Virus record (IMG/VR): IMGVR_UViG_3300007345_000010
DNA: 42,307 nucleotides
DNA from: a virus
Direction: 5' to 3' (one strand)
Numbering within the stretch: the first letter of the stretch is position 1; every line of letters starts with the position of its first letter. The position numbers were made by a program, and so were the translations under genes. This document shows positions 1 through 42,307 of the stretch, one piece after another. The notes under the pieces are model-generated. The model was not told where the DNA came from. It saw only the letters and a program-made list of their open reading frames with translations, and did not search any database.

Positions 1-123
1 GGGTCGAATGTTTGGCGCTGATTGCAGCCAAGCAATAAAACAAAACCCCGCCTAGGCGGGGTTTTATCTATAACACTACAGCTTACACGTGGTCGCGGTA
101 CGCTGCTGAGAACGGATAGCGGA
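1..123. repeat. Terminal direct duplication, copy 1 (identical to 42185-42307); implies a circular or circularly permuted 42,184-bp unit
   Basis: Read directly: both stretches are the same 123-nt string. The boundary cuts through the 3' ends of two convergent genes and their shared terminator, so it is not a natural end. Confidence 0.9.
42..65. terminator. Bidirectional rho-independent terminator between the capsid gene and the secreted-protein gene (second copy at 42226-42249)
   Basis: AAAA-CCCCGC-CTAG-GCGGGG-TTTT hairpin (stem 46-61) with an A-run on one side and a T-run on the other. It lies between a stop at 38 (+) and a stop at 83 (-). Confidence 0.8.
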
Positions 124-2716: not shown

Positions 2717-3535
2717 CTATTTGTAAACGCCGACAGCGACCTCGCCGCGCTCTTGGTTGCGCTTTACTTGTCTGGCGCTGATCGGTTTGCTTGTGCATCG
2801 ACAGTTAAAATCTTGCCCCGGCTTGATAGCCTCGCCGTGCTCGCTCGACGGTAGGTTATCCCAGCGGTATATCCCTTTGCCGTACGCTGTCACCTTGTTA
2901 GCGATCTGTTCGTGACGATGGCGCACACGGCTATCGTCCGAGTCAATCCACTGAAAGTATTCAAACCCCGCGCCGCGCTGCTGAAACTCTGCAAAATCAC
3001 CAGCCAGCTTTGCCGACTGGTCGCGCGCGATCATCTTGGCGCGCCGTTCAGCCACGCCAAACTGATCTACCAATAGCGACACAATAGCGCCGGGGCGATT
3101 GCCTGCGCGGGCATTGGTTAGAACGATATTGCCCACGTTATCTAGGTACTGGGCTGATATAGATGTGATTAGCTGCGCGTTCTGCTGTGTAGCCGCCTTG
3201 CTGTATTCCTGCAAATTGACGTTGCCGGTAAAAACGTCGATACCGGCCTGCTTTTTTAGGTCGCGCACCGACTTGGTTAGCGAGGTTTTTACCACTTCTC
3301 CGGCCAGCTGGACGGAAAACGCTTTAACCGCTGGCGAGTCAACCCACTTAGCGCGCAGCGCATTAAGCGCAATAAGCAGGGCATCAGCCCAGCCGTCGAA
3401 GGTTGGCGCGGCGTCCTGCACATATTCCGGCGCATACTGACGCAAGACTGGCACAAGCTGCGCATCAATGTCCTTTTTGATCATGCGCAGCATGCGCTGT
3501 AGCTTGGCGTTATACGTTACCGATATCGCGGTCAT
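2717..3535 (-). CDS. Minor head protein, SPP1 gp7 / Mu F-like
   Basis: 272 aa with a C-terminal FNCRCT-type motif typical of the Mu F family. It overlaps the portal 3' end by 26 nt. Confidence 0.7.
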   Translation of the reverse strand: MTAISVTYNAKLQRMLRMIKKDIDAQLVPVLRQYAPEYVQDAAPTFDGWADALLIALNALRAKWVDSPAVKAFSVQLAGEVVKTSLTKSVRDLKKQAGIDVFTGNVNLQEYSKAATQQNAQLITSISAQYLDNVGNIVLTNARAGNRPGAIVSLLVDQFGVAERRAKMIARDQSAKLAGDFAEFQQRGAGFEYFQWIDSDDSRVRHRHEQIANKVTAYGKGIYRWDNLPSSEHGEAIKPGQDFNCRCTSKPISARQVKRNQERGEVAVGVYK

Positions 3536-4817
3536 CTTCGCCGTCCAAGTCTAAAAGCGGGTCTTCCGACTTCTCTAGCGCCTCGATATCGCTGTCGTCA
3601 AACTGGTATAGCTCCTCTCCTTGCAAGCGCCGCTGCACTTGGCTGATAGTAACCACGCCCGAGTCAAGGTAGATAACGTCGGTTTCTGCCTTGGCCTTGT
3701 TCGCTGCCGCCACCTCTTGCGCGCTAGGCTGGTTAAACGGGTTCCAGATGTAATTGTAAAGCTCCGGAAACTCGCCAAGCGCTGAGCGAACCATAACCTC
3801 GTCGATCATGCGCAAAGCCGGGTCTACTTGAAGCTGGCGCTTGCTGCTTAGCGAGTTGTAGTAGTTGGTCAAGTCGCCTTCGCCAGTGGCGTTCAAGCCT
3901 TTAGCTGAGGTGCCGAAAAGGCGCGTCACCGGAATATCAGCCGCGCCACTAATCCAAGTCATCAAGGTTTCAAACACTGGCGACACGCCGCTAAGGTTTA
4001 GCGTGTTCCGCTGGTAGTCTTCATCGCCATCCAGTAGTGCCATATTGATAATGCTTTTCATTTGCGAGAAAAGCGCATAGCGCTGCTGGATTAGCTCGTC
4101 TTCACCGCTGGCTAGTTCATTAGCCAAGTTTTGACGCTTGATAACGTCCACGTTGGCTTCTTGCATTAGCTCCGCAATCCCGTCCTTGCTGGCGACGATA
4201 TCCATGATGTCATCCATGCACTTGCGCAGCTCAGAGTCACCCCAGCCTTGCGTTTGCGCACGCTGGCGGCGTGGCAACTTAGCGCCGTTAAAGCGCGCAA
4301 TGTGCGACCAATGCACGCGCTGCGAGCCGCCGTTAATAGTATAGAACTCGGGCAGCATGTAGTTTGCCGCCAGAATATTTGTCGTGTTCAGGTTTAGCGG
4401 GCCGAGTTCGAAACGATCGAGCGTCAAAAGCCGTTGCAGGCTTCCGCGCTTCACCTTGTTCATGTTTAGCGGCTTATCTAGCGGCTGGTCGGTCAGCATA
4501 AGAATTGCGCCGCCGCCATACAGACGCGCCCAGCTAACCGCCTCTGCTACTGCCGCCTGTAGCTGAATTTTATCCTCGTAGGCGCGCACATCGTCTGCGC
4601 CGTCCAATTTGATCGTACGCCACTCGCGTGTCATGTCCTCCGCTGGGGCGTCCACTATCTGGCGTGCAAGCCAGTTTGTTTGATAGGCCGCATCTAGCTG
4701 CTGGAAGTCGTTAAGCACGCCAAAGGTAAAAATGTTATGCGTGCGCTTAGCTTTGTCTGTGCCAAGTCCTGACACGACATTAGCTAAGCCGTCTAGGGTT
4801 TTGTTTCGGTCGGTCAT
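3510..4817 (-). CDS. Portal protein (DUF1073-type)
   Basis: 435 aa, between the terminase and MuF-like genes. The N-terminal LDGLANVVSGLGTDKAKR pattern and acidic C-terminus are typical of this portal family. Confidence 0.75.
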   Translation of the reverse strand: MTDRNKTLDGLANVVSGLGTDKAKRTHNIFTFGVLNDFQQLDAAYQTNWLARQIVDAPAEDMTREWRTIKLDGADDVRAYEDKIQLQAAVAEAVSWARLYGGGAILMLTDQPLDKPLNMNKVKRGSLQRLLTLDRFELGPLNLNTTNILAANYMLPEFYTINGGSQRVHWSHIARFNGAKLPRRQRAQTQGWGDSELRKCMDDIMDIVASKDGIAELMQEANVDVIKRQNLANELASGEDELIQQRYALFSQMKSIINMALLDGDEDYQRNTLNLSGVSPVFETLMTWISGAADIPVTRLFGTSAKGLNATGEGDLTNYYNSLSSKRQLQVDPALRMIDEVMVRSALGEFPELYNYIWNPFNQPSAQEVAAANKAKAETDVIYLDSGVVTISQVQRRLQGEELYQFDDSDIEALEKSEDPLLDLDGEDDRDIGNV

Positions 4818-4844
4818 GGTCTTAGCCCTGAATGATATTCGTTA

Positions 4845-6068
4845 TCATAGCATGTCGCGCAGACTCTTGGAGTACCGCATCTGGATAGCCTTGTCCAAGG
4901 CGTAACGGATAGCGTCAATGTAGTGGTTATTTGCGTCAACAATGGCCGGAAGAATATCCTTTGTCAGCCTGTCAACCTTGTAGCTGTAGTCGGTAAACTC
5001 CTGCGCCACCGGCCTGCATCTTTCGTGAACTACTATCTCGTCGAATGACTTCATAAAAGATATTCCGTCTTCTACGCTGCCTTTCCATTTCTTAACGGCG
5101 GCAATAAAGGGCAGACCGTTACGGCGAAGATAGCTAATAGACTCAGGGCGTGCGCTGTCTGCGCGTATCACCGTCTTTTTTGCGCTTGGGATTTTGGCGC
5201 AAATAAAAGTAGCCGTATCGTCAAGCTCTAGGCCTACCTTTCCAGCACACCGGCTAACGTACAGCTTGCGGTCGTGAATGAAGCACTCGACGGCTGCGGT
5301 AGGGTCTTGGCTGAACCCGAAGTCCAGACCGTTGTAAGGCCCATCCCAGTCGCTTTGCGGCTCAAACTCGCCGGTGCGCCACTTACCCTTAAATACCTGC
5401 GCGTCGCTGTGCTCAAGGTATGCGCCTTCCCATACGTGCGCGTATTCCTCTGGCGACATGCGGTCACGGTCGCCTAGTCGCTGTTCGTTAAGTACGTCAG
5501 GGAACCACGGGTTGTCGCTGTAGTTCATCTCGACGATGCAGGCACGCTCGGCTTGGCTCTGCCTAAATCGCGCGTCTACCGGGCTGCCTTTTCGCTTCGG
5601 GTTCCAGATCACCCACACTTCTGACTTTGGCGCGCGAATCGTCGGCAGCAGCTCAATCCAAGCGTGCTCAGGCACATCCTCGGCTTCCTCGATAATACAA
5701 AGGTCAACCTGTGCGGTTGACTTAACGCTGCTTGTATTGTGGCGCAAGCCTTTGAACAGAAAGTCCGTGCCGTTCTTGCCGCGTATGTAGTCTACGCCAA
5801 CCTCATAAGCAGCCTCTAGCCAAGGCTCTGACGCGATGGCGTTTTTTAGCTCGGCGTGGAAAGACTCTTTGATGCTGCCCTGAAACTCACGCACACAAAG
5901 AATGCGCAGCGGCTCGACAATCCCCCAGACAGCCGCCATCTTGGCAAAAGAAAACGACTTGGCGGAGCCTCGCCCACCGTATGCGCAGCGATATCGCAGC
6001 TCGCCACGCGGTTTGCTGAATACCTTAAGCAGCTTTGGCGGCAGGCGTACCTTAACCTTCGTCGTCAT
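4845..6068 (-). CDS. terL: Terminase large subunit (PBSX/Terminase_3-like)
   Basis: 407 aa with an N-terminal Walker A-like GGRGSAKS and a C-terminal nuclease half. It sits directly upstream of the portal gene. Confidence 0.85.
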   Translation of the reverse strand: MTTKVKVRLPPKLLKVFSKPRGELRYRCAYGGRGSAKSFSFAKMAAVWGIVEPLRILCVREFQGSIKESFHAELKNAIASEPWLEAAYEVGVDYIRGKNGTDFLFKGLRHNTSSVKSTAQVDLCIIEEAEDVPEHAWIELLPTIRAPKSEVWVIWNPKRKGSPVDARFRQSQAERACIVEMNYSDNPWFPDVLNEQRLGDRDRMSPEEYAHVWEGAYLEHSDAQVFKGKWRTGEFEPQSDWDGPYNGLDFGFSQDPTAAVECFIHDRKLYVSRCAGKVGLELDDTATFICAKIPSAKKTVIRADSARPESISYLRRNGLPFIAAVKKWKGSVEDGISFMKSFDEIVVHERCRPVAQEFTDYSYKVDRLTKDILPAIVDANNHYIDAIRYALDKAIQMRYSKSLRDML

Positions 6069-6498
6069 CGTCTGGGCCGCACAGCGTAATAATGCTAGGC
6101 GTCATACTCCCATCACTAGACACATGGTCGATTACCTGCTTATCAAGCCCCATTAGCTTAGCTTGCCCCATTACGGCAGACACGCCTGCGGCAACCTGTG
6201 GGCGCTCGCCGCCTAGACTGGTTTCGTAAAGAACCTCCAGCTTGTCGTAAAGCTCTTTCGCTGTGACTTTGAATTCTTCCACAAGAATCCCCTTTAATTC
6301 GTCCATATACTTGATCGTTTCGGGGTGATGCAGCTCGCGGGAGGCGTTAACCGCCATCCAAGGGGCAACCTCTGCGTGCCCTCTAACCTGTGCCCATATC
6401 TCGTCCGCGCGCTTGCCGGGTGCCATGATCATCTGCCGAGCGAATTCCCAGCGGCGCTGCTGGGCTGGCTTGCGGTCAGGCTTTAGCGCTGCTGGCAT
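6052..6498 (-). CDS. terS: Terminase small subunit (putative)
   Basis: 148 aa. It overlaps the terL start by 17 nt and has an acidic tail (DDDDEG). The call rests on position plus weak family resemblance. Confidence 0.55.
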   Translation of the reverse strand: MPAALKPDRKPAQQRRWEFARQMIMAPGKRADEIWAQVRGHAEVAPWMAVNASRELHHPETIKYMDELKGILVEEFKVTAKELYDKLEVLYETSLGGERPQVAAGVSAVMGQAKLMGLDKQVIDHVSSDGSMTPSIITLCGPDDDDEG

Positions 6499-6814
6499 AA
6501 TGCCGCACCAATTCAGGAATGCGCGTAGCGGCGAAAAGCACTATGCCGCCGTGAGTGATAACGCCGCCGATGTTTGGCGAATAGCCTTGGGCAATGTCCA
6601 TTAGAAGCCAGAACGCGCCAGCGGCCAGCATCATGAAAGATATAGACTCGGCAGGCTTATCCCAGAACATCACGGCACGCAGATAGTCCAAGCTGCCAAC
6701 AATGATGGCTAGGCAGAAAAGCGACTCAACCAGCATTATAAGCGTCAGCCCGCCAAAGGTCGCCCCGGCAAATGCGCCACCAAAGAAAAAACCAACGACA
6801 GAAATCGCGCTCAT
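6476..6814 (-). CDS. Membrane protein, about four hydrophobic helices
   Basis: 112-aa hydrophobic ORF with a 4-nt overlap with the upstream gene and a 23-nt overlap with terS. Confidence 0.6.
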   Translation of the reverse strand: MSAISVVGFFFGGAFAGATFGGLTLIMLVESLFCLAIIVGSLDYLRAVMFWDKPAESISFMMLAAGAFWLLMDIAQGYSPNIGGVITHGGIVLFAATRIPELVRHYASSAKA

Positions 6815-7140
6815 TTGTTAAACCCGCGTTCACCCAACAGCGCGATGGCCTGCCGCAGAGCCGGGATAATGTTCATTGCTAAAAGGCCGATAAGGAAGGC
6901 TACGCCATACTCTGACGCGCTATCTGTTGGCAGCGCGAAGTGAGCGATGGCTAGAGGCGTTGTAAAAATAGAGCACGAAAACCCAACCAAAACAGCGGCG
7001 GTCGCTTGCTTTCTGGTCAGGTCTTTAAGGAAAGTTAGCGACAGGATAGCGCCGACAAAACCGGCAAAGGCTGACAAATACTTGGCTGCAATGGCCGTGC
7101 CTGCGGTCTCTATGGGCATTGGTAAGCGCTCGTTAAACAT
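6811..7140 (-). CDS. Membrane protein, about three hydrophobic helices (holin-like topology)
   Basis: 109 aa, first gene of the packaging/head operon, with hydrophobic segments and a basic C-terminus. The start codon is uncertain because no clear SD is present. Confidence 0.5.
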   Translation of the reverse strand: MFNERLPMPIETAGTAIAAKYLSAFAGFVGAILSLTFLKDLTRKQATAAVLVGFSCSIFTTPLAIAHFALPTDSASEYGVAFLIGLLAMNIIPALRQAIALLGERGFNK

Positions 7141-7226: not shown

Positions 7227-7460
7227 TTAGCCGTCGCCGTCGCCGTAGCCGTAGCCGGAGCCGTAGCCGTAGCCAGAGCCAGAGCCGTAGCCGGAGCCGT
7301 CGCCGTAGCCGTAGCCGGAGCCGTCGCCGTAGCCGTAGCCAGAGCCAGAGCCAGAGCCAGAGCCGTAGCCGGAGCCGTCGCCGTCGCCGTAGCCGGAGCC
7401 GTCGCCGGAGCCAGAGCCGTAGCCGTCGCCGTCGACTACAGGCTTATTCAGCTTTGACAT
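7227..7460 (-). CDS. Strictly alternating (X-Gly)34 repeat protein (X = Ser13, Tyr12, Asp9) with a 9-aa N-terminal head MSKLNKPVV
   Basis: ATG at 7460 is preceded by GAGGG 8 nt upstream. The ORF is 77 aa and every Gly codon in the tract is GGC. A terminator follows immediately. Confidence 0.7.
   Translation of the reverse strand: MSKLNKPVVDGDGYGSGSGDGSGYGDGDGSGYGSGSGSGSGYGYGDGSGYGYGDGSGYGSGSGYGYGSGYGYGDGDG
7230..7433. repeat. 204-nt hexamer-periodic tandem repeat (GCC-NNN)n underlying the GX protein
   Basis: Plus-strand units are gccgta, gccgtc, gccgga and gccaga only. Longer units such as gccgtagccggagccgtcgccgtagccgtagcc recur. Confidence 0.9.
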
Positions 7461-7833
7461 TTTTAGCGCCCTCAATGCTTTTGATTGCCTTATCGCTGCA
7501 AGGAATTAGCTCGATAGCTTCAAGCCACACACTTTCTACAGCCTCGGCGATCTTGCTTTGATCGTGCTTAATGCCGTGATTTGCGACAGCGCTTAAGCTG
7601 ATTGACTCTGATGCGTGCCAGCGCCACATACGGCGCGCGTTAATCACAATTACTTCGTTGCCTGATTTTTGTGCGATCTCGCCAAACCACACGCCAGCGG
7701 AATAGGTGCGCACAATGCATTTGCGGCCCACCATTGCGCTAAGACCTGCCTCAGTGACCTGTGCCTGCGCACCGCTAAACATTGCGGCGATCTGCTTTAA
7801 CTCGCCGAAAGTTAGATTATCAATATTGCTCAT
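7444..7833 (-). CDS. Hypothetical protein, first gene of the GX cassette
   Basis: 129 aa with a GGGAGG RBS. It contains a ...RTYSAGVWFGEI...NARRMWRWH...SLSAVA... pattern I have seen in uncharacterised phage proteins. Confidence 0.75.
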   Translation of the reverse strand: MSNIDNLTFGELKQIAAMFSGAQAQVTEAGLSAMVGRKCIVRTYSAGVWFGEIAQKSGNEVIVINARRMWRWHASESISLSAVANHGIKHDQSKIAEAVESVWLEAIELIPCSDKAIKSIEGAKNVKAE

Positions 7834-17883: not shown

Positions 17884-17922
17884 CTTGCTAACCCCTTTTC
17901 TGTTTTTCGTTTCGATGCGCTC

Positions 17923-17950
17923 AGTATAGTCATCTAACTTTAGAGTGCAA
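17923..17950 (-). promoter_or_regulatory. Sigma70-type promoter P6: TTGCAC-N16-TATACT
   Basis: -35 at 17950..17945 and -10 at 17928..17923, 40 nt upstream of the ATG at 17883. Confidence 0.6.
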
Positions 17951-17968
17951 GCGGTTTGCAAAAAAAAA

Positions 17969-18277
17969 GTGTGTGCTGAAAGCGTGTGCGCGTTTGCACA
18001 CGGCACCAGCCGCTCTAGCACGGGCCTTTCAGCCGTTTTGTGTGCTTGTGTGCTGTGTGTGCTCCCCTCGCGCACGTGCACGCCCAGTCACGCCCGTGCA
18101 CCCTATATATATATATATTAGTGTTAACACAGAATCTTATTATGGCGTTCACACCACACACCCAAACCGCGAACCGCGCACAGAGCACACAAGCACACAA
18201 AAACGCCGAAACCCGCGTGCTAGAGCCTCCGGCTGTGTGTGCTACGCTGCACACACTAGCACACACACAGCACACAC
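17969..18277. repeat. ~310-bp imperfect palindrome of GTGTGC/GCACAC hexamers around a (TA)7.5 tract and GTGTTAACAC; putative replication origin
   Basis: Left arm GTGTGC copies at 17969-18062, right arm GCACAC copies at 18150-18277. Matched arm pairs: 18035-18054/18183-18204, 18012-18022/18216-18226 and 17969-17978/18268-18277. AT core at 18104-18130. The region is non-coding and adjacent to the primase-helicase gene. Confidence 0.55.
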
Positions 18278-18279
18278 AC

Positions 18280-18302
18280 AAAAAACCCCGCACTTAGCGG
18301 GG
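18280..18302 (-). terminator. Rho-independent terminator after the primase-helicase gene
   Basis: On the minus strand: CCCCGC-TAAGT-GCGGGG followed by TTTTTT, 7 nt after the stop at 18309. Confidence 0.8.
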
Positions 18303-18308
18303 TTTCTG

Positions 18309-20555
18309 TTAGACGTTTCTTAATCGCCCGTTCTGGTCTATTAGTATTAGACCTTCATCGCACATAGCCCTCAGACGGCCTACGGCGCGTTTGTAGGCGT
18401 CTTTTCCAATTGCCCTATATGGCGCACGGAATCGCAGCTTTTGCGCCGCCTCGCGCACCGTTAGGGCCTTCTCGCTAAGCACCTCGATGATGGCTGATTC
18501 TTCGGTTTTCTCGCCTGACTCGCCAGCGTCGTGCAGCATGGTGGTCAAGTGGGTAGCCATAACGTCAACCAACTGCATCGCGCCCTCGATCATGCCGTCG
18601 CCAATAATGTCCGGCACTTCGGTGCCGTCGGCTAGAGACTCGATCACGTGCATCACTGATGCAACCTTGAGGACGTGAGTCTCAAACTTGCCCAGCCAAG
18701 ACACAGCTACCATATCGCCAGATGCCAACAGGTCGCCCATTCTGGCTTCCATTGCGCGGCGGTGTTCGAGGATTGACAGATAGCCGGTCGAAGTCGCGCG
18801 TAGCTGGACGGTGTCGTCTAGGCTCTTTTGCCTGCCGTCCACGTTGAAGGCCATGCGCTCGCTGTACTTCTGCACGCAACGCTCGACGGCGCGGCGGATT
18901 GGTAGCAGATCAGAGTCGCTAAGCGGCTCACCGTGCAGGGTGCGCACCCCAAGCATTGACGGCTCGCTAACGTACATGAAGCGCTCAGCAAGGCCGCTGC
19001 CGTTGGATGCCGAAAAGATACGCGCGCAGCTTCCCGGCTGGGCGACCAACACGATCGTTCCGTAAGCCACGCCTGAGAAGGTTTTGCGGTCTGTTCGTAG
19101 GCCGCTGACGTTTTCGCCAGCATAGCCCTTTAGTGCCAGCTCGTTAGTGCTGTGGAAATTGTTACCAGACGGGAACAGCGACATGAAGGCCGACTGCTCA
19201 GCTGAGGCGATACAGAACCGACCGTCCGCCCCGCTGGCAAGTGCGCGCTCAAGTGCCGCCGCCGTGGTGTCGGTCGTATTGCCGAAGGCGTAAAGCATTT
19301 GCGGATCTTCGTCGTCGATCTTGGCGTTGTACTGCGTGACGTACTCGTTGTGCGCGCGCATGGCGTCCTCGTAAGGGCGCAAAGCGACGTTCAGCAAGCG
19401 GCTTTTCTGAGTGGCTGGCGGCTGCTCGACCACGACGTAAAGGCCTGTCGCAATGGCGTCTGTTGAGCCTTGGTAGCGCACGCTGTAGTTGGTACACACC
19501 GAGGCAGAAGCCGAGCCGAGTATAGACATGAACGCCGACATTTCAGGAAATTCCAAGCAAAATGCAGCACGTTTGGCGAGCTTGCCGATCACGGTTTCGG
19601 CCAGTGGCTTAGGGATTCGTAGCGCGTCCGGCGCTTGCTCTTCTGGCTCTTCTGGTAGCACCATCGGCAGCGGGTGGAAGGTTACAGGCTCTTCCCATCC
19701 TGCTTGTTTTGCCATATGAACCAGAGTCCCCGCCGTGATGCCGCCACCCGACTTGAACGACGCCCACTTTTTGCGGTTTGCGGTCGGGTTGTTTTCGTCA
19801 CTGCGTCTGCACCACTCGTCCCAAAGCTCGAAGCCTTCGCCATCGGTTGCTGCGTGAATCGCCATACCTAGGTTGATATAAACGTCGTAGTCCCTGCCGG
19901 GATTAGGGATAGCATCAACCATTCCGGCCAGCTGTTCGTGAGACAGGTTGTGATCTGCGCCGTCTACTGATACGCGAACAATGGCGGGGCGCTCTAGCAG
20001 CTTGATAAGCGCCTGCGGTGCGTCTTGTAGCTTGTCCGGCCAGCCAGCGTGGCGCTCGTATTCAAGGCCGCTTTTGTGCAGCGAGCCATAGCCGATCACA
20101 AAACCAGACGACTTAAAGTCGATGCCAGGATATTGCGGCAGACTACCGCGCAGCAGAACGTGAGCAGGCCGATTGTAGTAGATATGCCAGCCGCCGCCGC
20201 CAGTGGCTACGGTGAGCGTTCCTGACGACTTAAAGTCTATTCCGGTGTCTTCTACAAGCCGCTGGTAAGAAGCGCTACCACCGTTGCGCGGGTCTACGTC
20301 GATCACCAGATGATCGTCTACCAGCACGCCAAAGCCGGTGCGCATGGTCATGGCGATTACTTCAAGCTGGTCGTCACCCCACGTTGGCGCTAGTTGGTAG
20401 TTTGCGCGCCGAGGGTGTTTTCCGACAGCTTCGCAGTCTGGTTGCCCACAGGCGCAACTGCCGTCCGGGTTAATGTCGTGCAACTCAAAGACGCGAAACC
20501 CCGCGTCTTGATAGTCAAGAAAAGACTCTAGGTTTCCATTGAACTCAAAGTCCAT
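18309..20555 (-). CDS. Bifunctional primase-polymerase (AEP/PrimPol) fused to a helicase-like C-terminal region
   Basis: 748 aa. The N-terminus has ...CACGQPDCEAVGKHP..., an acidic VIDVDPRNGG and GGGGWHIYY motifs of PrimPol domains. A large C-terminal DUF3987-like region follows. Confidence 0.8.
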   Translation of the reverse strand: MDFEFNGNLESFLDYQDAGFRVFELHDINPDGSCACGQPDCEAVGKHPRRANYQLAPTWGDDQLEVIAMTMRTGFGVLVDDHLVIDVDPRNGGSASYQRLVEDTGIDFKSSGTLTVATGGGGWHIYYNRPAHVLLRGSLPQYPGIDFKSSGFVIGYGSLHKSGLEYERHAGWPDKLQDAPQALIKLLERPAIVRVSVDGADHNLSHEQLAGMVDAIPNPGRDYDVYINLGMAIHAATDGEGFELWDEWCRRSDENNPTANRKKWASFKSGGGITAGTLVHMAKQAGWEEPVTFHPLPMVLPEEPEEQAPDALRIPKPLAETVIGKLAKRAAFCLEFPEMSAFMSILGSASASVCTNYSVRYQGSTDAIATGLYVVVEQPPATQKSRLLNVALRPYEDAMRAHNEYVTQYNAKIDDEDPQMLYAFGNTTDTTAAALERALASGADGRFCIASAEQSAFMSLFPSGNNFHSTNELALKGYAGENVSGLRTDRKTFSGVAYGTIVLVAQPGSCARIFSASNGSGLAERFMYVSEPSMLGVRTLHGEPLSDSDLLPIRRAVERCVQKYSERMAFNVDGRQKSLDDTVQLRATSTGYLSILEHRRAMEARMGDLLASGDMVAVSWLGKFETHVLKVASVMHVIESLADGTEVPDIIGDGMIEGAMQLVDVMATHLTTMLHDAGESGEKTEESAIIEVLSEKALTVREAAQKLRFRAPYRAIGKDAYKRAVGRLRAMCDEGLILIDQNGRLRNV

Positions 20556-20725
20556 TAGCTACGCTCCAAATAATCCGACAACTTCTTGAGGGTTTTATAG
20601 GTCGGGTTTGCATCTTTATTGTTGGCTACCTCGCGCACAGTGTTGTAGTGGATGCCGGCTGCTTGCGCCACGGCTTGCAAGTTACGGTCGGCTAGTGCCG
20701 CCCTGATTTGGTCTAGTGTTTTCAT
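20555..20725 (-). CDS. Small HTH regulator (Cro-like position), 56 aa
   Basis: MKTLDQIRAALADRNLQAVAQAAGIHYNTVREVANNK... First gene of the leftward operon, with a TAATG overlap with the primase gene. The TTG start at 20761 in the track would lie inside the promoter. Confidence 0.65.
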   Translation of the reverse strand: MKTLDQIRAALADRNLQAVAQAAGIHYNTVREVANNKDANPTYKTLKKLSDYLERS

Positions 20726-20754
20726 TGTGTTGTGGTTTTTTTGCTGTTTTGGTG

Positions 20755-20789
20755 TTGACAACGATAAACCAGACGCCTAAAGTTTGCAA
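20755..20789. promoter_or_regulatory. Fully overlapping divergent sigma70-type promoters (rightward TTGACA-N17-TAAAGT; leftward TTGCAA-N17-TATCGT)
   Basis: Rightward: -35 at 20755-20760 and -10 at 20778-20783. Leftward: -35 at 20789..20784 and -10 at 20766..20761. Near-palindromic 9-mers GTTGACAAC (20754-20762) and GTTTGCAAC (20782-20790) cover the two -35 boxes. Confidence 0.6.
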
Positions 20790-20848
20790 CGTCGAGAGAG
20801 AAAAGCAGGGCGCAAAGCTCGACCGCCCTATAACCCAATGGGGAACAC

Positions 20849-21613
20849 ATGAGCATCCTATCTACCATTAGCAAGCCACAAGACCGGGCGATCATTGCCA
20901 CGATCTGCGGTGATTCAGGAATGGGCAAAACCACGCTTGCCGCAACCTTCCCCAATCCTATCGTTATCCGCGCAGAAGATGGTTTGCAGGCTATTCCGGC
21001 AGACCAGCGGCCAGACGCTTTCCCGCTGTTACAAAAGGTCGACGATCTTTTTGAGCAGCTGCTCGCCTTGGTTAAAGAAGATCACAGCTACAAGACCGTT
21101 ATCATTGATAGCGTGACTGCCCTTGAGCGCTTGTTCATTCAGCGCATTATCGAAAGTGACCCAAAGATGCCTAGCAGTATTAACCAAGCGCTTGGCGGGT
21201 GGGGCGCTGGGATGGCGGCAGTGGCCAGTCTTCACCAGCGTGTGCGCAAAGCATGCGGCGTGCTGAACGAGCGAAAAGGTATGCATGTTGTCTTTATCGC
21301 GCACGCTGATACGGAAACGATTGAATTACCAGACCAAGATCCATATACGCGCTACAGCCTCCGCCTTGGCAAAAAGAGCGTTGCTCCGTATGTTGACGAC
21401 TCCGACGTTGTTGGCTTTTTGAAGCTGGAAACCTTCACCCAAGGCGACGGCGAACGCAAGAAAGCCATCAGCGACGGCACTCGCCTTTTGGTAACGTATG
21501 CCACAGCGTCGAACGTAAGTAAGAACCGCTACGGCATCACGGACGACTTAACCGTGGCGCAAGGTGCAAACCCATTGGCCGATATTGTCCCATCACTCAA
21601 GCAACAAGCATAA
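20849..21613 (+). CDS. Sak4-like RecA-fold ATPase (AAA_24-type recombination protein)
   Basis: 254 aa with Walker A GDSGMGKTT. It is followed by DUF669-type SSB and exonuclease genes, a standard phage recombination module. Confidence 0.75.
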   Translation: MSILSTISKPQDRAIIATICGDSGMGKTTLAATFPNPIVIRAEDGLQAIPADQRPDAFPLLQKVDDLFEQLLALVKEDHSYKTVIIDSVTALERLFIQRIIESDPKMPSSINQALGGWGAGMAAVASLHQRVRKACGVLNERKGMHVVFIAHADTETIELPDQDPYTRYSLRLGKKSVAPYVDDSDVVGFLKLETFTQGDGERKKAISDGTRLLVTYATASNVSKNRYGITDDLTVAQGANPLADIVPSLKQQA

Positions 21614-21625
21614 GGAAAAGAAACT

Positions 21626-22204
21626 ATGTCATTTTGGCAAACTAGCGACAATGAGCGCCTACAAACTACCGGCGAATACGACGCTGGCGGCAATATGGAG
21701 CCAATCCCGGCTAACACACAAGTACTAGCCGCGCCGGACGAGGCGAAATGGGACGAATACGACGGCGTCGAATACGTCAGCATCCGCTGGAACGTGCTTG
21801 CGCCGAAAGAGTACGCAAACCGCAAGATTTCCCAAAAGCTAAAGGTTTACGAACCAGACGCCAAAAAGGCCGACAAGGCTAAACGCATGCTGGCTGCTAT
21901 CGACGCGAACGCTGGCGGAAAGCTGCTCCAATCTGGCCAAGTGCCTAGCGATCTTGACCTGACCCGTAACTTGGTCAACAAGCCGATGATGCTGCTGCTA
22001 CAGGTTTGGGCTATCGAGAAGGAAGCCGACGGAACGCCGATCCCTAAGGCTGACCAGAAGCGCGGCAACTGGGTAGCCAAAGTAGCCCCGCGTAACGCTG
22101 CTAAGGCACCTGCGCCAGCTTCTGCGCCTGCTCCGGCTGGTGAGGCTCATTCTCCGGCACCAAAGCCTGCGGATGATCAGTTTGACGACGATATCCCGTT
22201 CTGA
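21626..22204 (+). CDS. DUF669-type single-stranded DNA-binding protein with an SSB-like C-terminal tip
   Basis: 192 aa with a Pro/Ala-rich linker and the terminal sequence DDQFDDDIPF. Confidence 0.7.
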   Translation: MSFWQTSDNERLQTTGEYDAGGNMEPIPANTQVLAAPDEAKWDEYDGVEYVSIRWNVLAPKEYANRKISQKLKVYEPDAKKADKAKRMLAAIDANAGGKLLQSGQVPSDLDLTRNLVNKPMMLLLQVWAIEKEADGTPIPKADQKRGNWVAKVAPRNAAKAPAPASAPAPAGEAHSPAPKPADDQFDDDIPF

Positions 22205-22249
22205 TAACAACAGGGGCGCCTAGCGCCCCGCCTTTTAATGGGGTGAATT

Positions 22250-23113
22250 ATGGAAAAGCAACGAAGTGCAGAATGGTTTGAAAAACGCAAAGGCCGAGTG
22301 ACTGGTTCGGTCGCTGGCGCTATCTTGGGTCTTAATCCTTGGATGACGGCAGACGACGTGCTGCGCCGCATGGTGCGCGAGTATCACGGCGCTGAATCTG
22401 AGTTTACCGGCAACGGCGCGACTGAATACGGCCAAGCGCACGAAGAACAGGCGGCTTTTGATTATCAGCTTGACACAGGGCGCACAGTGCAGGAGTGCGG
22501 GTTCTTTACTTTTGAGGATTGGCTAGGCGCAAGCCCTGACGGCCTTATTGGCTTCGACGGCCTTGTAGAGTTCAAGTGCCCTTACAGCAAACGCAACGGC
22601 GGCGAGTTCAAGCCGCTATCTGAGCAGCCGCATTACTACGCGCAAGTGCAGATCGAGCTTTTGTGCGCTGACCGCCATTGGTGCGACTTTTACCAGTGGT
22701 CGCCGGTTCAGGCGGCAAGCCTAGAGCGCGTCGAGCGAAGTGACCAGTGGCTTGCAGAAAACTTGCCGACGCTAAAGGCGTTTCACTGCCGGTATCTTGC
22801 CGCGCTTAAGGCTCCTGCCCAGCATCTAGAGCCAAAGCGCCCGACCGTAGACAGCCAAGAGGCCCGCCGCCTACTGGAAGAAATCGACGAACTGTCTGAT
22901 GCTATCGACATGGCGACCGAGCGCAAAAAAGAAGCAATGGCCGCGCTGGTCAAGTTATGCAAAGACCAGAACGCCGAGGTTTGCGGACGCCTGCTAACCA
23001 ATGTCGAGCACCAAGGGAGCGTGAACTACTCCAAGATAGTAAAAGAGCACTGCCCCGGCGTTGATGTTGAGCAATATCGTGGCAAAGCGTCGAGCTATTG
23101 GAGGCTGAGTTAA
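22250..23113 (+). CDS. YqaJ-like (lambda Exo family) recombination exonuclease
   Basis: 287 aa. The N-terminal QRSAEWFEKRKGRVTGS motif and later D...EFK motif are typical of YqaJ nucleases. Confidence 0.75.
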   Translation: MEKQRSAEWFEKRKGRVTGSVAGAILGLNPWMTADDVLRRMVREYHGAESEFTGNGATEYGQAHEEQAAFDYQLDTGRTVQECGFFTFEDWLGASPDGLIGFDGLVEFKCPYSKRNGGEFKPLSEQPHYYAQVQIELLCADRHWCDFYQWSPVQAASLERVERSDQWLAENLPTLKAFHCRYLAALKAPAQHLEPKRPTVDSQEARRLLEEIDELSDAIDMATERKKEAMAALVKLCKDQNAEVCGRLLTNVEHQGSVNYSKIVKEHCPGVDVEQYRGKASSYWRLS

Positions 23114-24894
23114 TGGCATACCGCTGGTATCAGCAGGAAGCCCACGTTTGTGTCATTCAGCATGTGCGCGGCTCAGTTGAGCCGTGCCTTGTTGAGGCCA
23201 CGACCGGCGCGGGCAAGTCGCATATTGTCGCAGGCGTTGCCGCTGAACTGCACCGACTGAGCGGCGGCAAGCATGTTTTATGCCTTGCTCCGTCGAGCGA
23301 ACTGGTCACGCAAAACCGCGAAAAGTACAAGGCGACCGGCAACCCGTCTAGCATCTATAGCGCGTCCGCTGGCTCAAAGTGCCTACGCCATCCTGTCGTG
23401 TTCGCCACTCCCGGCACGTTTAAGAAAGTAGCTAAGCGCATGGGCGCGAAGTTCTGCGCCGTTATCATGGATGAAGCGCACGGCATCACGCCAACAGTGC
23501 GCGGCATCATCGACGATATGCGCGAGTCAAATCCAAACCTGCGCGTAATTGGCTTGACCGCCACGCCTTATCGCCTAGGAAGCGGCTATATCTACCGCAT
23601 GGACGACAAAGGCCGCGCCATGACCGACCATAATGCGCGTGACCCGTACTTCGCCAAGCTGGTTTATCGTATCCAAGCGCATACGTTGATTGCGGAAGGC
23701 TTCCTAACAAAGCCCAAGATCGGCGAAGTTGCAGAGCATTACGACACAAGCGGCCTTCACCTTAACGCTCGCGGCCAATTCGATGCCGCCGATATTGACC
23801 GCGCATTCATGGGGCATGGGCGGCTTACCTCAGCAATCGTCGGCGATGTTGTGCGGCGCTCGCAAAACCGGCGCGGGGTTATGTTCTTTGCTGCCAGTAT
23901 CGAGCATGCGCAAGAGGTGATGGCTAGTCTACCGCCTTCGCTTAGCGCGCTGGTCACCGGCGAAACGTCAAAGGCAGACCGCGCTGACATTCTTAAGCGG
24001 TTTAAGGCGCAAAAGATCAAGTATCTTGTTAACGTATCAGTACTGACTACCGGCTTTGACGCGCCACACGTTGACGTAGTGGCCATCCTGCGCAAAACCG
24101 AGTCTGTCGGTTTATTGCAGCAGATTATCGGGCGCGGCTTGCGTATCTGCGACGGTAAGGAAGATTGCTTGATTCTCGACTACGCCGAAAATATTGCTGA
24201 CCACTGCCCAGACGGTGATATTTTTGCGCCTGAGATCACGGCGGCATACAAGTCAGGTGAGTCAGTTCCGCTTGAAGTGTGCTGCCCCGACTGCATGACC
24301 GTGCAAGAGTTTACCGCGCGGCCAAACGATGAAGGCTATGCGATCAGTAAGGAAGGCTACTTTCTCGACTTGGAAGGCGAGCCAATACAGACGGACGCAG
24401 GCCCGATGCCTGCACACTACGGACGGCGATGCTTTGGTATTGACCGGCACGGCACGCGCTGCGGCTATCGTTGGACGCTTAAGCGCTGCCCGGTGTGTGC
24501 AGAGGATAACGACATAGCTGCACGGCGCTGCCATTCTTGCAAAGCCGAACTGATTGACCCGAACGAGCGCCTGCGCCTTGACTTTGCGGCGCTAAAGAAA
24601 GACCCTACGCGCTTACAGGTTGACGAGGTGCTAGACTGGAAAGTCAATTCAACCATGACACGCGCCGGAAAAGAGGCAATCACGGTTGACTATGTGACGC
24701 CATATCGCCAGTTTCGCGTCTGGCTTGCGCCTTATGCGAAGGGAGGCCAGCCACTTGCCGACTATCGCCAGTGGTACGAAGCGACGGACGGCGGCACCGT
24801 GAAGCCTGAAACGATCACTTACCGAAAAGACCCAGAATCAGGGTTTTATCGTGTGCATGGGTACTGGGAGGAAAAGGATGAAATTCAGCAATGA
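23113..24894 (+). CDS. Superfamily-2 DEAH-box DNA helicase with C-terminal zinc ribbons
   Basis: Motifs TGAGKS, MDEAH, TATP and QQIIGRGLR, plus CCPDC...CPVC...CHSC clusters. ATG at 23113 (TAATG overlap, GGAGG upstream) is preferred over the TTG at 23098. Confidence 0.8.
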   Translation: MAYRWYQQEAHVCVIQHVRGSVEPCLVEATTGAGKSHIVAGVAAELHRLSGGKHVLCLAPSSELVTQNREKYKATGNPSSIYSASAGSKCLRHPVVFATPGTFKKVAKRMGAKFCAVIMDEAHGITPTVRGIIDDMRESNPNLRVIGLTATPYRLGSGYIYRMDDKGRAMTDHNARDPYFAKLVYRIQAHTLIAEGFLTKPKIGEVAEHYDTSGLHLNARGQFDAADIDRAFMGHGRLTSAIVGDVVRRSQNRRGVMFFAASIEHAQEVMASLPPSLSALVTGETSKADRADILKRFKAQKIKYLVNVSVLTTGFDAPHVDVVAILRKTESVGLLQQIIGRGLRICDGKEDCLILDYAENIADHCPDGDIFAPEITAAYKSGESVPLEVCCPDCMTVQEFTARPNDEGYAISKEGYFLDLEGEPIQTDAGPMPAHYGRRCFGIDRHGTRCGYRWTLKRCPVCAEDNDIAARRCHSCKAELIDPNERLRLDFAALKKDPTRLQVDEVLDWKVNSTMTRAGKEAITVDYVTPYRQFRVWLAPYAKGGQPLADYRQWYEATDGGTVKPETITYRKDPESGFYRVHGYWEEKDEIQQ

Positions 24895-25291
24895 CATACC
24901 TGTATTTGGTGATACCAAGTGGCGCGGCGAATGCCCTAGCGAGTCAGCCGAGCAGGTGACGTTTTTTGGCAAGCTGCGCCGTGAATTGCCGGAACTGGCT
25001 GCGGTAGCCATCCACCCGCGCAACGAAGGAAAGCGCACGCACGGCCAGACGATGCGCCACAAGGCGGAAGGCATGACACCGGGCGCGTCCGACATAATTA
25101 TTCCCGGCTTGCCTGCGTTTGTATGCGAGCTAAAGCGCAAAGACCACACAAAAAGCCGATGGCAACCGCAACAGCCGGAATATCTTGAGCAGTGCAAAAA
25201 GCTAGGCGCTTTCGCTTGCGTTGCGCTTGGGCATGAGGCAGCATGGCAGGCTCTAAAGGAGTGGCAAAAATCACTAAAGCCCACACAGTGA
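24878..25291 (+). CDS. VRR-NUC domain nuclease
   Basis: GASDIIIP...VCELKRK (D...ExK) pattern. ATG at 24878 with GGGAGG upstream overlaps the helicase 3' end. Confidence 0.7.
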   Translation: MKFSNDIPVFGDTKWRGECPSESAEQVTFFGKLRRELPELAAVAIHPRNEGKRTHGQTMRHKAEGMTPGASDIIIPGLPAFVCELKRKDHTKSRWQPQQPEYLEQCKKLGAFACVALGHEAAWQALKEWQKSLKPTQ

Positions 25292-25382
25292 AAGTTCGCG
25301 GCTATGCCGTGTTCACGATGATTTTAACGGACGACGAAAGCCCGGAAGCGGTTTGCCGTCGTGTTTTTGGGGGTAGATTGGA

Positions 25383-25577
25383 ATGGATAGACAAGAATAC
25401 CGCCAACGCGCCTACGAATTCGCGCACCGAACGCCAAAGAAGTTGACCGGCGAACAAGTGCGCGATATAAGGGTGCGTGCCGGTATGGGCGTTAGTCAAA
25501 AACTAATGGCTGCGCAGTACGGCGTGCATAAGAACACAATCAACCGGGTAGTTAATTATTGGAGTTGGACGAAATGA
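25383..25577 (+). CDS. Small HTH protein (64 aa)
   Basis: ...GMGVSQKLMAAQYGVHKNTINRVVN... helix-turn-helix. Confidence 0.6.
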   Translation: MDRQEYRQRAYEFAHRTPKKLTGEQVRDIRVRAGMGVSQKLMAAQYGVHKNTINRVVNYWSWTK

Positions 25578-26089
25578 CAATGACCTTTGAAGAATTTAAA
25601 ACCAACGTCGAGCAATGGGCGACTGAGCGCGGCATCTACGAACACAGCACACCGCTAGCTCAGGCGCTCAAGGCATGCAGCGAGGTGGGCGAGCTATGCG
25701 ACGCAGTGATTAAGGGCAACCTCGACGCTATGGCCGATGCTGTTGGTGATGTGGCGGTTTGTTTGGTGAATGTCTTGCACATGAAATGCGCGCCGTTAGA
25801 CCTTGATTACATTTTTGGAGAAACACCAGCCAAAATTGACTTGGAAATTAAGCGTGCAGTCGCTGGAATCAGCTTTGCAGTTGGGAATGTCAGCTACTCG
25901 GTTGCAGAAGGGTATGACTGCGAACCGTTGGAAGAGGTTTTAGATGCATCCTTTTATGCGCTGCGCATGACCTGCATTGCAGCAGAACTAGACTTCCTAG
26001 ACTGCTGCGAAAAAGCATGGAACGAAATCAAAGACCGAAAAGGCCGCATGGTTCCGGGCGGGGCGTTTGTTAAGGATGGCGAGCAATGA
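25574..26089 (+). CDS. MazG-like nucleotide pyrophosphohydrolase
   Basis: About 171 aa from ATG 25574 (ATGA overlap). EVGELCDAV...DAVGDVAV acidic helices are typical of the MazG fold. Confidence 0.65.
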   Translation: MTMTFEEFKTNVEQWATERGIYEHSTPLAQALKACSEVGELCDAVIKGNLDAMADAVGDVAVCLVNVLHMKCAPLDLDYIFGETPAKIDLEIKRAVAGISFAVGNVSYSVAEGYDCEPLEEVLDASFYALRMTCIAAELDFLDCCEKAWNEIKDRKGRMVPGGAFVKDGEQ

Positions 26090-26721
26090 TTAAGCGATAC
26101 GAACTAAACCAAGCAGGGCGCGACTTCGTTGTCGGTGATATTCATGGCGCATTCGATAAACTAAGCGAAAAGCTGGAAGCAATCGGCTTTAACGAATTGA
26201 AAGACCGCCTATTCTCATGCGGCGATCTTGTTGATCGAAACCCCGGCAGCGTGGACGCGCTAGGCTGGCTTGCTAAGCCTTGGTTTCATCCTGTGCGCGG
26301 CAACCATGACGACTATGTATGTCGGTATTTAACCTGCGACCATGAAAATTGGATTTATAATGGTGGCGCTTGGTTTTTTGGGCTAAGCTCAGCCGAGCAA
26401 AGAGAATTTTTCGTCCAGTTTAATGAGCTGCCGCTGGTTATCGACGTCGAAACATCGTCAGGCTTGGTCGGAATCGTTCACGCTGACCCGATAGTTTCAG
26501 ATTGGGGCGATCTGTCTGCCTTCATGAGTAATCGCAACCGCCAACGGCTAATGTGGTCGCGCGAGCGATTTGAGAGCGAAAACACCTCCACAGTTACCGG
26601 CATTGCGCGCGTCTATTGTGGGCATACGCCGGTGCATGAGCCTGTAACGCTAGGCAACGTGCACCATATCGACACAGCGGGATGGCATAGCAGCGGCTAC
26701 TTTACTGTCATTCAGCTTTAA
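26086..26721 (+). CDS. Ser/Thr protein phosphatase, lambda PPase/NinI-like metallophosphoesterase
   Basis: Ordered motifs GDIHG, GDLVDR, GNHD and GHT. Confidence 0.8.
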   Translation: MIKRYELNQAGRDFVVGDIHGAFDKLSEKLEAIGFNELKDRLFSCGDLVDRNPGSVDALGWLAKPWFHPVRGNHDDYVCRYLTCDHENWIYNGGAWFFGLSSAEQREFFVQFNELPLVIDVETSSGLVGIVHADPIVSDWGDLSAFMSNRNRQRLMWSRERFESENTSTVTGIARVYCGHTPVHEPVTLGNVHHIDTAGWHSSGYFTVIQL

Positions 26722-41934: not shown

Positions 41935-42222
41935 ATGAAAATCAAACTAGCAGCTATAGCGCTGGCATTACTACCAATGATGGCGACAGCGGAAGATGCA
42001 GACCGACAACTACGCGCAGACCAATACAAGGCGATCTGTGCGGCATTTGCGGCGCGCGAAATCAACAACACCGAACACGCCCCGGCGCGCGCACAGCTTT
42101 ATGCGGCGCTTGTCGATATGGGGCTAGAGGCTGGCAACGCAGCAACGCAAAGCGCCGCTGATTTGCTTTTCTTAATGAAGTATCGGGTCGAATGTTTGGC
42201 GCTGATTGCAGCCAAGCAATAA
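41935..42222 (+). CDS. Small secreted (signal-peptide) protein, 95 aa
   Basis: GAGGTGG RBS. Signal peptide MKIKLAAIALALLPMMATA-EDA followed by a helical mature part. It has its own promoter and terminator. Its 3' end is duplicated at 1-38. Confidence 0.7.
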   Translation: MKIKLAAIALALLPMMATAEDADRQLRADQYKAICAAFAAREINNTEHAPARAQLYAALVDMGLEAGNAATQSAADLLFLMKYRVECLALIAAKQ

Positions 42223-42307
42223 AACAAAACCCCGCCTAGGCGGGGTTTTATCTATAACACTACAGCTTACACGTGGTCGCGGTACGCTGCTGAGAACGGA
42301 TAGCGGA
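42185..42307. repeat. Terminal direct duplication, copy 2 (identical to 1-123)
   Basis: Identical string. It contains the duplicated terminator (42226-42249) and the last 41 nt of the capsid gene (42267-42307). Confidence 0.9.

Follow-up and report, generated by a model that had tools for sequence, protein, structure and literature searches.

Replication origins in which short repeated initiator-binding sites (iterons) stand in mirror-image arrays around an AT-rich core, next to a helicase gene, are already known from the staphylococcal pathogenicity islands (SaPIs). SaPI origins hold 6-12 penta- or hexanucleotide iterons immediately downstream of rep, with half of the iterons on each side of an AT-rich centre, at least two per side running in opposite directions, and the C-terminal winged helix of Rep reads the iterons of its own origin (PMC9371898). 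Rep binds and melts the origin without ATP, and two hexamers have been proposed to load, one per side; in SaPI5, primase and helicase are fused, and the SaPIbov1-type Rep is an MCM-like helicase of superfamily 6 (SF6; PMC9371898). Here, we describe a gene-free gap of comparable design (17884-18308) in the virus record IMGVR_UViG_3300007345_000010, whose whole stretch of 42,307 nucleotides is called the window in the following. The gap lies directly 3' of the minus-strand gene of a primase-helicase of 748 amino acids (aa), and in our judgement it is likely to be a phage replication origin of theta type, probably bidirectional, that is recognised by the product of this adjacent gene. The argument for an origin draws on the comparison of related loci, and that for its mechanism on the analogy with SaPI Rep.

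All sequence-level hallmarks of a SaPI origin are found in the window, namely iterons just 3' of the gene, an AT-rich centre, and opposed arrays. A protein of the corresponding kind (in SaPIs, a hexameric AAA+ helicase of SF3 or SF6 that ends in a winged helix) is predicted from the Pfam assignment to DUF3987, from structure models, from a weak MCM fold match, and from the literature placing DUF3987 in SF6. The differences are equally clear: the window is a complete 42-kb phage of Gram-negative type with no detectable sequence similarity to the solved Rep proteins, its units are 7 bp long, number 12-14 and stand in two tiers per side with a spacer of ~35-50 bp between them, the whole structure extends over 310 bp, and binding and melting are predictions in this case. 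By analogy, the region would work like a SaPI origin, and it is no SaPI. A preliminary description of the window had not recognised this hexamer architecture from a described phage origin; this view has to be revised, since SaPI origins share the design (PMC9371898), which has moreover been used for phage origin prediction (PMC13517437). The latter case is Enterococcus phage Abitsa (Efquatrovirus), for which an origin with seven 10-bp iterons around an AT-rich region was predicted in 2026 on the SaPI5 model (PMC13517437). Like the window, Abitsa is a true phage with a predicted iteron/AT-rich origin beside the gene of a self-loading helicase; it differs in its PriRep5-like SF3 helicase as well as in unit length, copy number, and host group, and its origin is likewise only predicted.

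A further precedent is the Sulfolobus plasmid pRN1 (protein ORF904), in which a stretch of ~100 nt, inversely symmetric and located past the terminator on the 3' side of the PrimPol-helicase gene, is required by the minimal replicon (PMC4234260). Berkner et al. proposed bidirectional initiation by two rings, stressed DNA structure over repeated binding sites, and noted that a comparable stem-loop, proposed as an origin, follows the PrimPol-PriCT_2-helicase gene on its 3' side in Bordetella phage BIP-1 (PMC4234260). In the BIP-1 sequence (AY526909, 26603-26712; L080 304-413), 2+2 inverted TTGCCTCGT units flank an AT-rich stretch, and the inverted repeats TTTCTCAT / ATGAGAAA are present as well; the array lies ~0.46 kb past the 3' end of the gene (PMC4234260), with a lipoprotein-like open reading frame (ORF), read by eye, in between. 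The window resembles pRN1 and BIP-1 in having a single protein with PrimPol, helical (PriCT-like), helicase, and winged-helix domains, and it resembles pRN1 in the large stem-loop-forming element beyond the terminator, 3' of the gene. In pRN1, however, the helicase belongs to SF3 and the element has no recognised iterons, whereas the window encodes a DUF3987 helicase and it is the repeats, not the pairing, that are conserved across lineages.

The alpha protein of satellite phage P4 also unites initiator, helicase, and primase, and its C-terminal winged helix binds short repeated octamers in ori; replication of P4 also depends on crr, a second cis site that lies several kb away from ori, and alpha combines a DnaG-type primase with an SF3 helicase. 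The window, in contrast, holds no second unit cluster that could be a counterpart of crr, and PrimPol and DUF3987 take the places of the DnaG-type and SF3 domains. In the origins of phage lambda (initiator O) and of theta plasmids (RepA, TrfA, pi), the iterons are 17-22 bp long, mostly direct and located on one side of the unwinding element. These initiators are without a helicase, DnaB is brought in, and the plasmid origins usually have DnaA boxes. Repeated initiator sites beside an AT-rich unwinding element, near the initiator gene, are shared with the window, whose units are however 7 bp long, inverted, and found on both sides of the core, with no DnaA-box consensus in the gap.

Anatomy of the gap

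The gap is bounded by the stop codon (18309-18311) of the 748-aa gene and by the ATG (17883) of the next minus-strand ORF, and the long ORFs that span it are not called as genes in relatives. Exact GTGTGC/GCACAC hexamers are heavily concentrated here: 12 of the 29 present in the window (42.3 kb) fall within 17971-18275, against a background of 0.12 per 305 bp (Poisson P for at least 12, ~2e-20), and the best interval of this size elsewhere holds 3. The heptamer TGTGTGC is even more confined, with 10 of 13 copies inside the gap and the remaining 3 scattered. When every possible centre of dyad symmetry in the genome was scanned, the best was found at 18119.0 (77 of 160 positions complementary, z = 6.3), in keeping with the preliminary description, which had placed the centre near 18119-18123 with correct coordinates and had argued that the gap is not an ordinary spacer.

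The left arm contains five top-strand hexamers (17971, 17984, 18040, 18048, 18057) and one inverted (17996), the right arm five GCACAC (18185, 18193, 18249, 18259, 18270) and one GTGTGC (18237), next to the degenerate units GCGCAC at 18176-18181 and CACACCACACAC at 18150-18161. On either side of the AT-rich core there are thus 6 + 6 exact hexamers, or 7 + 6 if the degenerate unit is counted. At least six units in the left and at least seven in the right arm had been claimed before; these figures are reached only with opposite-strand and degenerate units, as the exact units on the same strand amount to five per arm. In gene orientation (minus strand), read from 18305 down to 17923, the gap follows its gene as listed below.

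18309..20555, minus strand: gene of the 748-aa PrimPol / PriCT_2 / DUF3987 helicase / winged-helix protein, the predicted initiator, helicase, and primase
18312..18512, minus strand: part of this gene coding for the C-terminal winged helix (~residues 682-748), the predicted iteron reader
18280..18305, minus strand: intrinsic terminator of the primase-helicase gene, AAACCCCGC-TAAGT-GCGGGGTTT, then a T run; 9-nt arms, 100% complementary, 5-nt loop
18235..18279: outer iteron cluster on the gene side, three direct units followed by an inverted one (GTGTGTGTGC, GTGTGTGTGC, GTGTGTGC, 6 nt, GCACACAC); exact hexamers at 18237 (+) and at 18249, 18259, and 18270 (-)
18235-18256: local hairpin within this cluster
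18204..18226: spacer element on the gene side, 23 nt, reverse complement GCTCTAGCACGCGGGTTTCGGCG; inverted copy of 18012-18035
18176..18200: inner iteron set on the gene side, GCGCACAG, AGCACACA, AGCACACAA on the plus strand, with an 8-9 bp period; two exact units (hexamers at 18185 and 18193) and a degenerate one
18144..18175: conserved flank of the core, CACACCACACACCC, then AAACCGCGAACCGCG; near-iteron units
18104..18143: AT-rich core, predicted unwinding element; (TA)7T at 18104-18118, palindrome GTGTTAACAC at 18121-18130, AT-rich up to 18143
18063..18103: G+C-rich block with two GTGCAC (18076, 18096) and two CACGCCC 10 bp apart (18079, 18089)
18038..18062: inner iteron set on the far side, TTGTGTGC TTGTGTGC TGTGTGTGC; exact hexamers at 18040, 18048, and 18057
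18012..18035: spacer element on the far side, GCTCTAGCACGGGCCTTTCAGCCG; inverted copy of 18204-18226
17969..18001: outer iteron cluster on the far side, GTGTGTGC, GCGTGTGC, 6 nt, GCACAC; exact hexamers at 17971 and 17984 (+) and at 17996 (-)
17984-18001: local hairpin GTGTGC-GCGTTT-GCACAC within this cluster
17923..17950, minus strand: possible promoter for the downstream small genes, TTGCAC, 16 nt, TATACT, with an A/T run beside it; outside the palindrome

This list provides a base-level map of a candidate origin for a phage lineage without a cultured close relative. The TA tract, the palindrome, the GTGCAC and CACGCCC repeats, and the hairpin at 17984-18001 all read back as they had been described; the second hairpin is present as well, one base away from the position first given for it (18234-18255). 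About 18119, the top-strand inner set (18038-18062) mirrors the bottom-strand one (18176-18200), and a repeat finder delimited longer arms of 82 nt each (17981-18062 and 18176-18257) that are 74% complementary. The far-side outer cluster, in gene orientation, consists of one direct and two inverted units. Altogether, about 7 predicted sites would lie on the gene side of the core and 6 on the far side. The unit nearest to the gene ends at 18279, 29 bp from the stop codon, with the terminator filling the interval. As single-stranded DNA, the region folds at -93.5 kcal/mol compared to -60.8 +/- 3.3 for shuffled sequences (z = -10; none of 100 shuffles as good), and its lowest G+C content over 40 bp is 15%, at 18104-18143, in a genome of ~55% G+C.

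No Rfam family scored above threshold for the region, with sub-threshold chance matches only. Neither DnaA-box nor IHF (integration host factor) nor Fis consensus sequences occur in the gap of the window; the lack of DnaA-box and IHF consensus fits a self-loading initiator. A consensus scan for promoters and terminators found no promoter inside the palindrome and missed the terminator at 18280-18305; the weak hairpin that it flagged inside the spacer element is not regarded as a terminator. The promoter-like pair at 17923-17950 was seen by eye, stays under the threshold of the scan, and lies in DNA without alignment to L070; a promoter role is a weak suggestion.

Conservation of the layout among relatives

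Usable relatives came from a protein cluster search combined with contig look-ups, and ten loci (the window, L070-L073, Pseudomonas phage Amjad_SA as L074, and L075-L078) were compared in a uniform site map. The protein search yielded one protein with 89% identity (P0002) and three with 58% identity (P0003-P0005), located on contigs L070-L073. In 4/4 of these contigs, a gene-free interval of ~455-470 bp lies directly 3' of the orthologous gene, with the nearest unit and an intervening terminator placed as in the window; the genes farther downstream differ. The terminator hairpin is identical in L070, and L071-L073 have another hairpin with a T run at that place.

Between the window and L070, the primase-helicase gene is 81% identical at the nucleotide level and 59.5% at third codon positions, compared to 91.6% for the non-coding stretch 18012-18227 and 95-100% for its central 80 bp. 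The AT-rich core (18104-18143) is 100% identical, its flank (18144-18175) 95-100%, the gene-side inner set is identical, and the G+C-rich block reaches ~90%. The far-side outer cluster is the least conserved part, and the DNA beyond the outer clusters does not align. Because the non-coding inner region is far better conserved than the third codon positions, it is under much stronger constraint than synonymous sites, and this alignment shows purifying selection on the non-coding core. L070 has TGTGTGC units as in the window; copy number and perfection differ in its outer clusters, with symmetry and inner part preserved, which is the pattern that the preliminary description had suggested looking for in aligned relatives.

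The more distant contigs L071-L073 keep the position of the terminator, the outer cluster, the inner set with its 8-9 bp period, the AT-rich core, the mirror-image inner pair, and the distal cluster, and yet every unit reads TGTGCCC instead of TGTGTGC. The G+C-rich block (18063-18103 in the window) is missing from the L071 lineage, its place being taken by a CT-rich block. In alignment, the inner sets are TTGTGTGC TTGTGTGC TCTGTGCGC in the window and TTGTGCCC TTGTGCCC TCTGTGCCCC in L071. Such a concerted change on both arms, with the layout preserved, would be expected of sites that co-evolve with their reader protein.

A second group of relatives encodes helicase-only proteins of ~520-540 aa with DUF3987 as the sole domain, 45-52% identical to the C-terminal 58% of the query; here, the region is found 5' of the helicase operon, beside terminase operons of three families. 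In Pseudomonas phage Amjad_SA (OP917824), TGTGCTC units occur in a window-like layout upstream of the helicase operon (record ~6555-7080), in an unannotated intergenic region with 11 such units (L074 1278-1803) and with recognisably homologous spacers, for example GGGGCTTTCGGCG and CGTTCTAGAGCGGCTG. By homology, an unannotated candidate origin can thus be marked in a cultured phage, where it is testable. The metagenomic contigs L075-L078 share the layout, with TGTGCTC units in L078 and TGAGTGC or TGAGGGC in L075-L077. All of the ten loci (10/10) follow one recurrent scheme, [>>> <]-spacer-[>>]-AT core-[<<]-spacer-[> <<(<)], often with 6+6 sites; the '> > > <' pattern of the gene-side outer cluster recurs in every relative, and an AT-rich core lies between the inner sets in most of the related origins, that of Amjad_SA being weak (at best 10 G+C in 30 bp). 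The small genes that flank the helicase are not common to the PrimPol-helicase and helicase-only groups, and since these flanking genes differ, no local gene other than that of the helicase with its C-terminal domain stands beside the region in every case.

The spacers deserve separate mention. L070, Amjad_SA, and L078 have sequences related to those of the window (TCTAG ... TTTCGGC) in the corresponding position; L071-L073 have one on the far-side arm only, with the CTGAAA...TGCTAGAG motif kept. A spacer element of ~23 bp (GCTCTAGCACG..GG..TTTC.GC) between the outer and inner iteron sets is conserved across lineages with differing iterons, so that its ligand may be distinct from the iteron reader. 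CTAG shows no scarcity in this genome, and its presence in the element is thus unremarkable in itself. The left spacer of L071 (8385-8400), L072 (8368-8385), and L073 (2690-2705) contains a perfect IHF consensus (AATCAATGGTTTA; AATCAAAGGTTTA in L072), at a place that is occupied in the window by the GCTCTAGCACG... element.

A nucleotide search of GenBank phages gave no match, either for the 4.5-kb region in near mode or for the gap in distant mode; an exact-pattern scan of viral contigs for the inner iteron set found none; and the sole metagenome contig matching the core pattern (L079) was dismissed as an unrelated, eukaryote-like chance match. Protein-based locus scans of IMG/VR and GTDB retrieved distant relatives only (at most 44% identity over part of the protein), and a look-up of the window protein itself returned no record. 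Many distant PrimPol-PriCT_2 proteins, whose helicase parts are AAA_25, DUF5906, or D5_N and not DUF3987, are followed by a lineage-specific 7-mer that is repeated 4-9 times within ~300 bp 3' of the gene, often as '> > > <' and then in inverted copies (arrays in the first 300 bp after the gene: L002, L006, L008-L010, L013/L014, L021, L062, L042, L057, L065, L041, L050, L035, L054). Judged by these arrays, a lineage-specific short-repeat array just after a PrimPol-helicase gene is a common design, and the rule of 7-mer arrays beside such genes, which held in ~20 further loci, could be used to annotate origins in viral metagenomes.

The predicted initiator and a proposed mechanism

In Pfam, the 748-aa protein matches Prim-Pol (2e-14), PriCT_2 (3e-18), and DUF3987 (3e-24). 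DUF3987 has been classed as an SF6, MCM-related helicase whose C-terminus carries a winged helix-turn-helix (PMC4889955), and helicase activity has been demonstrated for a PriCT-DUF3987 protein (PMC11724360); DUF3987 helicases are common in phages, and no characterised origin for them was found in the literature searched. In an AlphaFold model of residues 306-748 (mean confidence score pLDDT 78.5), an AAA+-like core precedes a domain with the topology helix-helix-helix-strand-strand, and the last 73 residues, modelled alone, adopt the same topology at a pLDDT of 90.5. Foldseek aligned this small model with the cullin WH-B domain, IclR, VanR, the gamma domain of FtsK, Fur, MecI, the winged helix of Rpa2, and histone H1, at TM-scores (a measure of structural similarity) of 0.5-0.68 and probabilities of up to 0.99; the E-values (at least 0.05) are non-significant because the domain is small. 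According to these models, the protein ends in a winged helix. When this domain was aligned across the ten loci, the sequences sorted by unit type, with residue 709 being F in the TGTGTGC group, R with TGTGCCC, N with TGTGCTC, and H with TGAGTGC. That the unit type tracks the sequence of the winged-helix domain is a lead, not a proof.

The preliminary description had seen the signature of a bidirectional origin in inverted iterons that flank a readily melting core next to the initiator gene, and this proposal has gained support, as every in silico test fits it. In the mechanism that we envisage, one polypeptide would unite a PrimPol primase-polymerase, PriCT_2, an MCM-like SF6 helicase (DUF3987), and a C-terminal winged helix that would read the 7-bp TGTGTGC units. 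The origin would consist of two mirror-image half-origins with ~6-7 sites each; a half would begin with an outer cluster of four units, three of them direct and one inverted, continue with ~35-50 bp of spacer that holds the conserved element, and close with two or three inner units at an 8-9 bp period. One helicase ring would presumably load per half, both rings facing the 40-bp AT-rich core (18104-18143), which would then melt, possibly starting in the (TA) tract. Replication would proceed in both directions, with the PrimPol domain priming the exposed strands before the host polymerase and the phage single-stranded DNA-binding protein (SSB; 21626-22204) take over.

A more specific version of this mechanism is conceivable, and we offer it tentatively, as one that is rather less probable than not. 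In this version, the two variable bases of the unit (TGTG-TG-C, TGTG-CC-C, TGTG-CT-C) would be read by few winged-helix residues, residue 709 (F, R, or N) being the best candidate, the ~6+6 sites would template a loader-free double hexamer with one winged helix per site, and the spacer element would set the geometry. If this specificity code were true, these phages would represent a natural set of orthogonal origin-initiator pairs. A single architecture with four natural unit variants tied to the winged helix makes direct swap experiments on iteron reading possible, and the family bears on the self-loading of an MCM-like ring. A cruciform was considered as the main functional form and rejected: extrusion is unlikely because the arms are imperfect (74%) and 113 nt apart, and the relatives conserve units and their order, not base pairing.

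Competing explanations and genome setting

Several observations weigh against an origin read by the 748-aa protein. In a fold search with the helicase part, the best PDB matches were MCM subunits, at weak scores (E 9e-4, TM 0.34), and SaPI Rep was not retrieved; a PDB sequence search with the whole protein gave no chain at E <= 1, even though the PDB includes structures of Rep1 and PriRep5. The correspondence between unit type and winged helix involves four lineages only, which differ in many other respects. The G+C-rich block (18063-18103) and the spacer elements are conserved outside the iterons, and a second protein may take part. The packaging operon also adjoins the region in the helicase-only relatives. 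GC skew, with gene strand as covariate, forms a broad plateau at 19-29 kb, is best at 24.5-26 kb, and is weaker at 17-18 kb; the skew is uninformative and locates no origin.

Some of these points recur in the alternative that the region is an origin whose iterons are read by another protein (the helix-turn-helix (HTH) protein encoded at 20555-20761, another phage protein, or a host factor), with the primase-helicase being recruited afterwards. An HTH regulator gene does precede the primase-helicase gene in the window, L070, and L071-L072, the conserved sequences beyond the iterons (spacer elements and G+C-rich block) could serve such a reader, and the pRN1 operon also encodes a small DNA-binding protein. 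The helicase-only relatives, however, have a homologous layout with no homologue of that HTH protein beside the helicase, their small neighbours are without homologue in the window, and no other local gene is common to all lineages. Furthermore, Cro/repressor-like HTH families, which the regulator of the window matches, usually target promoter operators, and yet no GTGTGC cluster is found in the divergent promoter region 20761-20849. We consider this alternative unlikely.

An improbable reading in our estimation is that of a transcriptional control region, that is, an operator array with a dedicated regulator between the terminator of the early operon and a downstream promoter. Its appeal is the location, since the repeats lie between the terminator (18280-18305) and the next operon with its possible promoter (17923-17950), and the position is divergent and intergenic in the helicase-only relatives. 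An operator would hardly call for 12-14 sites over 310 bp around a core of 15% G+C, with 60-330 bp separating most of these sites from the putative promoter downstream; conservation is lowest in the promoter-proximal DNA, and no promoter-like site passes the scan inside the palindrome. The region also stays with the helicase gene, not with any one downstream operon.

As cosB/pac and parS regions, too, contain short-repeat arrays with a bendable centre, the gap might serve in packaging (as pac or cos) or in partition, with the small terminase subunit or a ParB-like protein as its ligand. In Amjad_SA and L075-L078, the region is indeed located 0.1-1 kb from the terminase-bearing operon, and in L073 a terminase gene follows 2 kb downstream. 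In the window, though, the terminase and portal genes (3510-6498) are 12 kb away from the gap, the adjoining terminases of the relatives vary (Terminase_6, Terminase_3, Sf6-type) at constant layout, and a partial scan of the window proteins showed no ParA, ParB, or integrase. This explanation is very improbable. Least credible is a functionless (GT)n-like microsatellite that expanded in a spacer and is symmetric by chance; several units do overlap short GT runs (GTGTGTGTGC), but no other centre in the genome scores as high for symmetry, conservation of the inner part far exceeds that of synonymous sites, and the units of the relatives (TGTGCCC, TGTGCTC, TGAGTGC) are no GT repeats in a layout like that of the window, so that the comparative data contradict and exclude it.

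With the origin read by the adjacent primase-helicase as the preferred explanation, the remaining genome can be outlined briefly. The first 123 nt of the window (1-123) are identical to its last (42185-42307), which points to a circularly closed assembly and a genome of 42,184 bp. Terminase, portal, tail, and lysis genes are present, and the source is an uncultured tailed phage, a full phage rather than a satellite. The following features lie outside the gap.

3510-4817: portal
4845-6068: terminase large subunit
20761 leftwards: leftward operon, opening with a small HTH regulator (20555-20761) that is followed by the 748-aa gene (18309-20555)
20849-26721: rightward replication/recombination operon with AAA_24 ATPase, SSB (21626-22204), YqaJ exonuclease, DEAD-box helicase, MazG, and NinI-like phosphatase
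~26.7-27.5 kb: endolysin and spanin

For the small HTH regulator (20555-20761, minus strand), an internal ATG is probably the true start, resulting in a protein of 56 aa (MKTLDQIR...) as in L070; the first 12 codons of the ORF as listed have no counterpart in relatives. Outside the gap, the DEAD-box helicase gene contains 4 GTGTGC hexamers in 580 bp (24277-24856), the flanks of which are unlike the iteron and which are probably due to chance. A minus-strand ORF of 82 codons at 7227-7475 encodes a product of nearly nothing but Gly/Tyr/Ser/Asp repeats (MSKLNKPVVDGDGYGSGSGDGSGYGDGDG...), and this repetitive ORF gives the second-best dyad-symmetry score of the genome.

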